Origin: Escherichia coli
Lineage (GTDB): Bacteria > Pseudomonadota > Gammaproteobacteria > Enterobacterales > Enterobacteriaceae
Length of the DNA: 64,000 nt
Direction: 5' to 3' (one strand)
Assembly: GCF_003334765.1 (NCBI RefSeq)
Contig: NZ_QOWT01000016.1
Below the pieces are notes generated by a model. It worked only from the letters and a program-made list of their open reading frames with translations, ran no database searches and was not told where the DNA came from. The first letter of the stretch is position 1. The number at the start of each line of letters is the position of its first letter. Below, in pieces: positions 8,447 to 11,371 of the stretch. The translations under genes were made by a program, and so were the position numbers.

Positions 8447-8869
8447 TTATTCCCGACCGCTGCGCACTTTGCCGCGCATCGCCTTCACGCTTGATTTTTG
8501 TGCTTTCGATGCCAGCCTGCGCTCTTTCGATGCACGGGTGGGCCGCGTGGGTCGTCGGGCTTTTTTTTCTGTTGTTAATTCTTTAATCATAGCCACCAGC
8601 CGGGCCAGAGCTGCTTCGCGGTTCAGTTCCTGACTGCGGTATTCCTGTGCCTTAATGACAATCACGCCATCACTGCTGATCAAATGATGGCTGGCGGCGA
8701 GCAGACGCTCTTTGTAATACTCTGGCAGGCTGGACGCCCGAATGTCAAAACGCAGATGAATAGCCGTTGAGGTCTTATTAACATGCTGCCCGCCCGCGCC
8801 CTGCGCACGAATGGCGGTGATCTCAAGCTCACCATCGGGAATAGCAACATGTCGGGAAATCACAATCAT
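8447..8869 (-). CDS. arfB: peptidyl-tRNA hydrolase / alternative ribosome-rescue factor B
   Basis: 140-aa ORF with GGQ motif ([12 protein letters not shown]) and basic C-terminal tail; recognised ArfB (YaeJ). Confidence 0.95.
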
Positions 8870-9411
8870 GAAGGTTGTTGCCAGGCGGTTAAGTTCACTT
8901 CCAGATTATTCTTATCATCCGATAACCAGATCACGCCATCCTGAATCGTTGCCTGCAGCGTCATGGTACGATCGGCAAAGGCGCTTACTTTCGCCAGTTG
9001 TTCATCGTCCAGATACCAGACGGAAAGATTGGCAAACTGCACACATTTGCTCTGATTTTGCTGCCACCAGATTTGCGCCGCCCGACTATTATAGGTAAAC
9101 AGCGCCACTTCTGCGGCCTGGGTGCAGGCTTTCTTAATCCGCCGCTCATCCGGCAGCCCCAGCTCAATCCACAAATCAATGCCCAGGTGATCGTTACGCA
9201 GCCACGCTTCCGGCTCATCATCGGCACACAAACCACGGGTAAATTGCAGACGTTCATCAGCATATTTCAGCCACGCCAGCAAGCGCAGCATCATACGCTC
9301 CTGGGTTTCTGAAGGATGGCGCGCCAGCGTCAGAGAGGCATCGAGAAACTGGTTGCGGTCGAGATCGGCCACATTAACCGTCGCTTTATAAATTGTCGCT
9401 TTAAGCGCCAT
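8866..9411 (-). CDS. yaeQ: YaeQ family protein (uncharacterised)
   Basis: 181-aa ORF starting [18 protein letters not shown]; its stop overlaps the arfB start by 4 nt. Confidence 0.9.
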
Positions 9412-9576
9412 AAGAAAACTCCTTTCGAATCAGGAGGCCATTGTAACGGAATACGTGCAGTTGCGGCGCTGATATTGCAGAAATGAGTGTGGTATAGTCA
9501 CCTTGCGAAACAGAGTTTATCTTCGTAGGCTTAGACTTGCATCCACGGTTAAGTCAGAGTGCTGACAGGAGGGCAT

Positions 9577-9777
9577 GTGGAAAAATATTGTGAGTTAATA
9601 CGCAAGCGGTACGCGGAAATCGCCAGCGGAGACTTAGGATACGTTCCGGACGCGCTGGGCTGCGTTTTGAAAGTGCTGAATGAAATGGCTGCCGACGACG
9701 CCCTTTCTGAGGCTGTCAGGGAAAAAGCAGCATACGCTGCGGCAAACTTACTGGTGAGCGATTATGTCAATGAATGA
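9577..9777 (+). CDS. yaeP: small protein YaeP (UPF0253 family)
   Basis: 66-aa product [19 protein letters not shown] from a GTG start preceded by SD-like AGGAGGG; the ORF-track start at 9559 is an upstream GTG. Confidence 0.8.
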
Positions 9778-10024
9778 TACGTATCAACCAATCAATTGTG
9801 ATGATTACGATAATCTTGAGCTCGCCTGCCAGCATCATTTAATGCTGACACTTGAGCTGAAAGATGGCGAAAAATTGCAGGCAAAAGCCAGTGATTTAGT
9901 CTCCCGCAAAAATGTGGAGTACCTGGTCGTCGAGGCCGCTGGCGAAACCCGCGAGCTGCGTCTGGATAAAATTACCAGCTTTAGCCACCCGGAAATCGGT
10001 ACGGTGGTGGTAAGCGAATCCTGA
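9770..10024 (+). CDS. rof: Rho-binding antiterminator Rof (YaeO)
   Basis: 84-aa product [21 protein letters not shown]; an in-frame ATG at 9764 is an alternative start; overlaps the yaeP 3' end. Confidence 0.9.
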
Positions 10025-10072
10025 TTGACTTTCGCCGGATGCGACGTTTGATGCGTCTTATCCGGCTTTCAC

Positions 10073-11371
10073 TTAACTAAGCGTTTTCTGCCAGACAAAA
10101 CTTACGCCATTCTCACCTTCAGCCACACCTTCTTGCGTCACAAATACCCCTGCCGCCGCAATCAGCGTTTCGCCATAAAACAGCAGTGGCGTGGTGTCAC
10201 GTAGCCACGGCGGCACGCCCAGCTCTTGCCAGATTTTCTTTAGCTTACGTCCGCCGTTACGCCCGACAATATGCAGCAATCCTGGCGCTTTGAAACGCAC
10301 GCTGACCGCTTCGTCTGCACGCGGAGGGCGAATATCGCCTCCCGCATTAAGCTGTACACTTCCCAGCCCCGCCGGTAATTCCAGCGGTTGAAGCCACGTC
10401 TGCCACGGCACAATGTTTTCGCTTTGCCCGGTGACGGATTTAATCCACCACAGTTGCGACTGATAGCGTCGGATTTCAAACGCGCCCAAACGTAAACAGG
10501 GTGAGGCATCTTCCCGCGCCAGCGCCACTTCCTGCCAGATCCTCACCAACGCGTCGCGGGAAGGCATCGGTGCATTCTGCCCTGCCAGCCAGCGGCGGAT
10601 AATCGCCGCGCGGCGGGCATCACTCATCGCCAGCATTGGCACAATCTGCAGCGTCCCCTGCGGCGATTGACAGTGTGCTAAATCATCTGCCAGCAGTTCA
10701 TCCAGCAGGCTCTCTTGTTCAGCACAAAGTGCGGCGCTGCGGGCCGTTGCTTCGGCAAAATGCGGCCAACGCTGCTGCAATAACGGCACTACGCGCAGGC
10801 GCAGAAAGTTACGATCGTATGAGTCGTCCTGATTACTTTCGTCTTCAATCCAGCGTAAATCATACTGACGCGCCCACTGCACCAGTTCCCCCCGCGTGCG
10901 GGCGAGCAACGGGCGAATAAGCCGCGTTCCGGCAAACTCCGAGACTTCCGCCATAGCCGAAAGCCCGGCAGGGCCACTGCCGCGTTTTAGCGCCAGCAGA
11001 AAGGTTTCACATTGATCGTCGAGATGTTGCGCGGTGACCAGCACTTCACCGGGCAACAAGGTGCGGGCAAATGCCTGATAACGTGCCTGCCGCGCCTGGG
11101 CCTCAATGCCCAGTCCTTCTTGCGCAAGTTGTACGCGTTCGACCACCAGCGGCACCTGCCACTGTTGGCAGACGTTTTCGCAATGCGTAACCCAGGCATC
11201 GGCATTGGCACTTAAACCGTGATGCACATGAATAGCGCGCAGAGCGACACCCGGATTTTCCGTCCGCCACTGCACCAACTGATGCAGCAGAACGGTGGAG
11301 TCAAGCCCGCCGCTAAAGGCCACCAGAATCTGGCGTGAGGTGAGAAGTTGTCTATTGAGCGTGAGTGTCAT
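10073..11371 (-). CDS. tilS: tRNA(Ile)-lysidine synthetase
   Basis: 432-aa ORF with PP-loop motif SGGLDS ([13 protein letters not shown]); recognised TilS. Confidence 0.95.

Follow-up and report, generated by a model that had tools for sequence, protein, structure and literature searches.

The yaeP-rof Operon of Escherichia coli: a Conserved Gene Overlap with Nucleotide-Level Constraint at Its Junction

The yaeP-rof Locus and Its Conservation

The window analyzed here is a stretch of 64,000 nucleotides (nt) from Escherichia coli (contig NZ_QOWT01000016.1 of assembly GCF_003334765.1), and the subject of this work is a pair of small overlapping genes on its plus strand, yaeP and rof, the second of which encodes an inhibitor of Rho-dependent termination. 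The locus is the already published E. coli yaeP-rof operon (b4406-b0189), which is real and strongly conserved and is not new. The window is chromosomal DNA of the K-12 type. Its region from 9300 to 10300 matches that of strain K-12 MG1655 at 100% identity, and, of 5426 complete genomes of the species, 5425 carry positions 9400-10100 at an identity of at least 95%. An earlier sequence-only reading of the window had named the two genes and assigned to them a GTG start, 66 codons and an overlap of 8 nt, all of which agree with the annotation of NC_000913.3, where rof (213678-213932) and yaeP (213925-214125) give a Rof of 84 amino acids (aa) and the same 8-nt overlap.

Both open reading frames (ORFs) are recognized by family models. 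YaeP matched NCBIfam NF003436 with 137.4 bits (cut-off 99) over residues 1-66 and Pfam PF06786 across the entire model (positions 1-65 of 65; E = 8.3e-34), and it has the small three-helix bundle of the family (about 65-69 aa), known from the crystal structure 5H1N (SF173, Shigella). Because this structure and negative overexpression phenotypes exist, the description of YaeP in the sequence-only reading as an uncharacterised protein holds only in part. Rof matched NCBIfam NF008636 (Rho-binding antiterminator; Rof/YaeO, Pfam PF07073) with 176.7 bits (cut-off 117) and is identical in sequence to the PDB chains 1SG5 (nuclear magnetic resonance), 8W8D and 8PTM, with 8W8D and 8PTM-8PTP being the cryo-electron microscopy (cryo-EM) entries of the Rho-Rof complex. 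PDB chains of identical or almost identical sequence exist for both YaeP and Rof. In addition, the abundance of YaeP is listed as 94.5 parts per million (ppm), and both YaeP and Rof have been detected by mass spectrometry in Salmonella.

The action of Rof is known from the identical protein, which binds the N-terminal domain of Rho, blocks the primary RNA-binding site and keeps the ring from closing (Said et al., 2024, PMC11018626), and inhibition of Rho-dependent termination by Rof has been reported (Said et al., 2024; Morita et al., 2022, PMC9765468). The residues in Rof's N-terminal helix that contact Rho are C10, Y13, D14 and E17 in the numbering of the 84-aa form (Said et al., 2024); all four are present in the protein encoded here, and their columns are invariant in a paired alignment of 35 species. 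It is rof, and not yaeP, that gives the antitermination phenotype, according to a study that states the same overlap (Morita et al., 2022). As Rho is essential and Rof is among its few endogenous inhibitors, how the synthesis of Rof is throttled is of genuine, though narrow, interest.

A scan of one genome per species yielded 80 Enterobacteriaceae loci, of which 79 were usable, and the species counts given below refer to these 79. In every one of them yaeP has 66 codons and ends in TGA, rof is intact and follows at an unchanged offset, and the gene lengths are identical; the start codon of yaeP is GTG in 77 species and ATG in the other 2. The ratio of nonsynonymous to synonymous substitution rates (dN/dS; pairwise Nei-Gojobori) is 0.068 for yaeP and 0.063 for rof, as against 1.3 and 3.3 for the other two frames of the yaeP region. 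Conservation of the yaeP frame across enterobacteria had been proposed beforehand as a check on this gene, and the ratio of 0.068 bears it out, no gene-refuting frame disruption being seen among the 79 species. The stop codon of rof varies freely among species, unlike the TGA of yaeP, which is invariant in all of them. The only YaeP proteins of deviating length that are common in E. coli (65 and 67 aa) are due to in-frame indels of one codon in the AADD loop, and 3' disruptions occur only in rare E. coli entries. Among these rare entries, P0002 and P0053 have the C terminus of YaeP swapped for unrelated sequence from codon 62 or 66, which implies that, in a small number of strains, the junction of yaeP and rof is itself the site of an insertion or rearrangement.

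The Junction and the Choice of the rof Start

Two starts of rof are in circulation, and the same K-12 sequence carries both of them in two NCBI annotations (84 versus 86 aa). In the RefSeq PGAP annotation (NZ_CP032667.1, L001:3365-3625), the start of rof is placed 6 bases further upstream than in NC_000913.3, resulting in a protein of 86 aa and an overlap of 14 nt. The longer form corresponds to the chain of PDB 1SG5 and to the NCBIfam model, which has a length of 86 positions, and the shorter form is the chain of PDB 8W8D and the one used in the Rho-Rof cryo-EM papers. The stop codon of yaeP follows the downstream ATG (9770-9772) after 3 nt and the upstream ATG (9764-9766) after 9 nt. The warning of the sequence-only reading that such overlapping pairs are easy to mis-annotate was well placed, as is evident from the two starts of rof and from N-extended E. 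coli YaeP entries of up to 93 aa.

The 3' end of yaeP is conserved at the level of nucleotides. Codons 58-64 (TTA CTG GTG AGC GAT TAT GTC, 9748-9768) are each represented by a single codon in 79 of 79 species, whereas only 3 of the 72 other yaeP and rof codons with an invariant, degenerate amino acid are frozen in this way (hypergeometric estimate ~4e-8), and the mean dS elsewhere is ~0.9. Because codons 58-61 precede the coding sequence of rof whichever start is used, dual coding cannot explain their freezing. The overlap region is conserved far beyond the protein requirement, and we read the frozen block, extending to the stop codon of yaeP, as the putative translation-initiation region of rof.

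No canonical GGAGG precedes rof, and the published description of the pair states that rof overlaps yaeP by 8 nt with no Shine-Dalgarno (SD) site, and that the two genes always overlap in Enterobacteriaceae and not in Vibrionaceae (Said et al., 2024, Nat Commun). An SD-like GGUGA is nevertheless found at 9753-9757, upstream of both candidate start codons, with a spacing of 6 nt to ATG 9764 and of 12 nt to ATG 9770. It is complementary to UCACC of the 16S 3' tail, with a calculated duplex energy of about -7.6 kcal/mol compared with -10.8 kcal/mol for the SD of yaeP. Since this SD-like element is invariant, the published statement that rof lacks an SD appears to be only approximately right.

The two candidate start codons differ in their conservation: ATG 9764 is invariant in all 79 species, and ATG 9770 is replaced by ACG in two of them (L016 and L023), a substitution that leaves the YaeP protein unaltered (AAT to AAC). 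The comparative evidence thus favors the upstream ATG, and we favor a start at 9764 as the AUG probably used in vivo, which would give an 86-aa Rof. Accordingly, the 8-nt overlap that had been read from the sequence stands if rof begins at ATG 9770, and the real overlap may be 14 nt. Outside the scanned set, a Serratia genome with a YaeP that is 64% identical shows the same synteny and retains GGTGAGCGA, both ATGs and the TGA, so that the block is largely preserved.

Two further elements at the junction were considered and rejected. A hairpin that would mask the rof start (9752-9790) has a folding energy of -9.6 kcal/mol in E. coli (z = -1.8), whereas the four further species folded gave only -5 to -7.5 kcal/mol and z values close to 0; as a conserved element it is weak, showing no covariation and having two stem pairs broken in many species. 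An antisense promoter found by a consensus scan on the minus strand (9802-9774) was discarded because its -10 hexamer spans positions 9778-9779, which are variable between species.

Features Surrounding the Two Genes

The coordinates of the features at the locus are collected in Table 1.

Table 1. Features of the yaeP-rof locus, in positions of the 64,000-nt window.
Feature	Position	Strand	Description
Promoter-like site of yaeP-rof	9469-9498	+	-35-like CTGATA 9469-9474, 18-nt spacer, extended -10 TGgTATAGT 9490-9498; predicted by consensus scan
Presumed 5' leader	9499-9576	+	Conserved block CACCTTGC(G/T)AAACAGAGTTTATCTTCGTAGGCTTA; small GUCAG/CUGAC hairpin just before the SD
Shine-Dalgarno AGGAGG of yaeP	9567-9572	+	4 nt before the GTG; GGAGG invariant in the alignment
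yaeP coding sequence	9577-9777	+	GTG start, 66 codons, TGA 9775-9777; UPF0253/PF06786 three-helix-bundle protein
Nucleotide-frozen block TTACTG GTGA GCGATT ATG TCA ATG AA TGA	9748-9777	+	Inside the 3' end of yaeP
rof coding sequence, 86-aa reading (MSMNDTY...)	9764-10024	+	14-nt overlap with yaeP; TGA stop at 10024
rof coding sequence, 84-aa reading (MNDTY...)	9770-10024	+	8-nt overlap with yaeP, 9770-9777
REP-type palindrome GCCGGATGCGACG...CGTCTTATCCGGC	10034-10066	.	Between convergent rof and tilS

The start of yaeP lies within an enclosing plus-strand ORF (9559-9777 in the ORF list). The SD listed in Table 1 is the one given for yaeP in the literature (Kohl et al., 2022). The start itself is an AUGUG site, in which GTG 9577 shares nucleotides with ATG 9575, the out-of-frame start of an ORF of 7 codons (MWKNIVS*, 9575-9598, plus strand). 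At least 90% of the species retain the "AT" that precedes the GTG; we rejected this mini-ORF as a gene, as its peptide is not conserved and shrinks to ATG-TGA in some genera. In the same vein, yaeP has been listed among the atGTG genes with no ambiguity predicted (Kohl et al., 2022).

Upstream of yaeP, the TATAGT hexamer of the promoter-like site (ATAGT or TAGT where the aligned stretch ends) and the TG before it are conserved in the species whose alignment reaches the site. The leader block that follows, CACCTTGC.AAACAGAGTTTATCTTCGTAGGCTTA, is roughly 35 nt long and highly conserved, in a region (9490-9533) that also includes the extended -10 TGnTATAGT. No Rfam family matched the leader (9499-9576), its RNAalifold consensus reached -1.6 kcal/mol, and the pair counts gave no covariation. 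A helix drawn by hand, in which the leader (CUCACAGUA) pairs with codons 4-6 of yaeP, did not exceed shuffled sequences and likewise gained no support from covariation. Codons 4-5 of yaeP (TAT TGT, 9586-9591) are themselves frozen in all 79 species. On these results, a structured or riboswitch-like 5' leader was provisionally set aside.

The neighboring genes are transcribed from the minus strand, with yaeQ-arfB-nlpE to the left of the pair and tilS to its right. The palindrome downstream of rof scored below threshold against Rfam naRNA4 (27.9 bits versus a gathering score of 59.5), and REP elements have been described as bracketing the locus (Said et al., 2024). A second overlapping pair in this same divergent locus is formed by yaeQ (8866-9411) and arfB (8447-8869) on the minus strand, which share 4 nt (8866-8869); this overlap was also mentioned by Said et al. 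(2024).

Expression of rof: Coupling or Independent Initiation

Taken together, the genes and their junction are best described as a conserved two-gene operon of the Enterobacterales, in which the ribosome-loading region of rof lies within the last 30 nt of yaeP and rof is translated by a restart after yaeP, a reading to which we assign a probability of roughly 80%. A single transcript, probably arising from the extended -10 promoter near 9490-9498, would carry first yaeP, with its strong SD and GTG start, and then rof. Ribosomes ending yaeP at UGA 9775-9777 would stop 3-11 nt downstream of the two in-frame rof AUGs (9764 and 9770) and could re-initiate at a rof AUG, aided by the moderate SD-like GGUGA. 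The synthesis of Rof would thereby be tied to that of YaeP and kept lower. Rof would then bind the primary RNA-binding site of Rho and hold the hexamer in an open, inactive ring. YaeP, for its part, is a folded three-helix protein in its own right and more than a leader peptide.

The geometry typical of coupled pairs, two genes on the same strand with the upstream stop just past the downstream start, was found in 79 of 79 species. The coupled expression suggested by the sequence-only reading fits this invariant geometry, which is shared by the Serratia locus, and modulation of rof expression by yaeP, or coupled expression of the two, has already been suggested (Said et al., 2024; Morita et al., 2022). 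The identities of the genes, the geometry of the overlap, its conservation and the constraint on the nucleotides of the junction are observed, and from them we infer the dependence of rof translation on that of yaeP.

Several observations weigh against this reading. First, initiation complexes assemble on the rof region in vitro even when yaeP is not being translated: the supplementary tables of INRI-seq list weak peaks at the annotated rof ATG (about 8-13) and at ATG -6 (7.9), which, together with the invariant SD-like element, makes some independent initiation possible. Second, the hairpin over the rof start, at -5 to -10 kcal/mol, is no better than shuffled sequences in four of the five sequences folded. 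Third, although the source data of Said et al. (2024) include yaeP+rof, yaeP-deltaATG+rof, rof[84aa] and rof[86aa] constructs, the main text of that paper reports no outcome for them. The TRAINSPOTTER supplements contain no entry for either yaeP or rof.

The main alternative is that rof is translated independently from the internal GGUGA, the overlap being a matter of compact packing and the translation of yaeP having no influence. The pairing of GGUGA with the 16S tail and its suitable spacing to ATG 9764 speak for it, as do the invariance of the element in the 79 species and in Serratia, and the initiation complexes of INRI-seq were formed at both rof AUGs on a template lacking the yaeP start. 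However, these in vitro peaks are small in comparison with the value of 71.8 in the initiation region of yaeP. The latter peak was assigned to a CTG at -15, which we take to be an offset artefact of the annotated start, since offsets of -14/-15 recur often in the INRI-seq table. In addition, rof has no peak in the in vivo Ribo-RET column of the same tables, and independent initiation leaves the invariant TGA and offset of yaeP unaccounted for next to a rof stop that varies freely. We therefore consider exclusive independent initiation unlikely, and restart after yaeP is retained as the preferred explanation.

The Role of YaeP

Fixed-ratio co-expression is typical of interacting pairs, and YaeP could thus be a functional partner of Rof or Rho (a chaperone, antagonist or co-factor), with the overlap fixing the stoichiometry. 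Retention of the overlap in all 79 Enterobacteriaceae species and in Serratia is compatible with this possibility, and the coupling of yaeP and rof has been described as general in Enterobacteriaceae (Said et al., 2024). However, an AlphaFold (AF2) model of a YaeP-linker-Rof fusion, built on the paired 35-row alignment, gave no sign of a YaeP-Rof complex: the predicted template modeling score (pTM) was 0.41 and the YaeP part lost confidence, in what is a crude test without output of the predicted aligned error (PAE). YaeP alone was also without effect on termination readthrough (Morita et al., 2022), and YaeP is present in lineages in which rof is located elsewhere or is non-adjacent. We hold a partnership of this kind to be improbable. 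The same low expectation attaches to the more specific proposal that YaeP takes part in the Rof-Rho circuit, as a stoichiometric partner or as a modulator, and that the overlap, the frozen 21-nt stretch and the upstream AUG set the YaeP:Rof ratio; if this were true, a fixed ratio of the two proteins would matter for the control of Rho.

It is less probable still, to the point of being very doubtful, that yaeP is only a leader ORF, the translation of which matters for rof expression or for the protection of the transcript from Rho and the peptide of which is functionless. YaeP has no known function, its overexpression alone produced no phenotype in colony or readthrough assays (Morita et al., 2022), and a leader ORF ahead of a Rho inhibitor would, speculatively, make an attractive feedback device. 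A functionless peptide is difficult to reconcile with the strong purifying selection at the amino acid level (dN/dS of 0.068), with a folded three-helix bundle of known crystal structure and with a protein that is seen by mass spectrometry in Salmonella and listed at the abundance given above. Moreover, homologs of YaeP occur without an adjacent rof: in Utexia brackfieldae and several metagenomic contigs YaeP is found by itself, yaeP and rof are on separate chromosomes in Vibrio cholerae, and rof is also missing next to yaeP in Vibrio alfacsensis. In this last species (L084:2501-2898), yaeP is followed by a gene for a 63-aa DUF4250 protein instead of rof, with a stop/start overlap of 1 nt (TAATG), which suggests that the small protein to which YaeP is coupled may vary from lineage to lineage.

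The notion that the 66-codon frame is a chance ORF or an annotation artefact, which its shortness, its GTG start and the out-of-frame ATG overlapping that start might invite, has already been refuted by the family models, the crystal structure, the dN/dS, the in-frame-only indels within E. coli and the proteomic detection, and its probability is negligible.

Comparison with Known Systems

Rof shares its target with other inhibitors of Rho. The phage P4 protein Psu and the kinase YihE target Rho like Rof, according to the literature, and are unrelated proteins encoded in different genetic contexts; the window contains nothing connected with them. The homologous Sm-like Rho inhibitor YaeO/Rof of V. 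cholerae (PDB 6JIE) aligned with E. coli Rof at E = 2.8e-5, and the alignment of its chain begins only at residue 10 of 86-aa E. coli Rof, which means that the extreme N terminus is not shared. In V. cholerae, yaeP and rof are uncoupled, being located on different chromosomes (Said et al., 2024).

With regard to the overlap, the neighboring yaeQ-arfB pair (4-nt ATGA overlap) resembles yaeP-rof in having both genes on one strand, the upstream stop a few nt past the downstream start, and the ribosome-binding region of the downstream gene inside the upstream one. The classical trp-operon junctions are a further example of translational coupling. Compared with such coupled pairs, yaeP-rof is distinguished by an overlap of 8 or 14 nt instead of the commoner 1 or 4 nt, and by two candidate restart codons.

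Compared with the published yaeP-rof operon of E. coli K-12, the locus, the gene order, the overlap and the proposal of coupling are the same, and nothing differs in substance. What is added here is the conflict in the annotation of the rof start, in which the comparative data speak for ATG 9764, together with the frozen block that contains GGUGA and is read as an initiation region, and the conserved putative promoter and leader. The first two of these points are relevant to the claim that rof is devoid of an SD: in contrast to the description of an overlap of 8 nt without an SD (Said et al., 2024), we observed an invariant SD-like GGUGA and a better-conserved upstream ATG, which would extend the overlap to 14 nt. 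They leave the overall picture of the published operon unchanged and will be useful for the design of decisive mutants.
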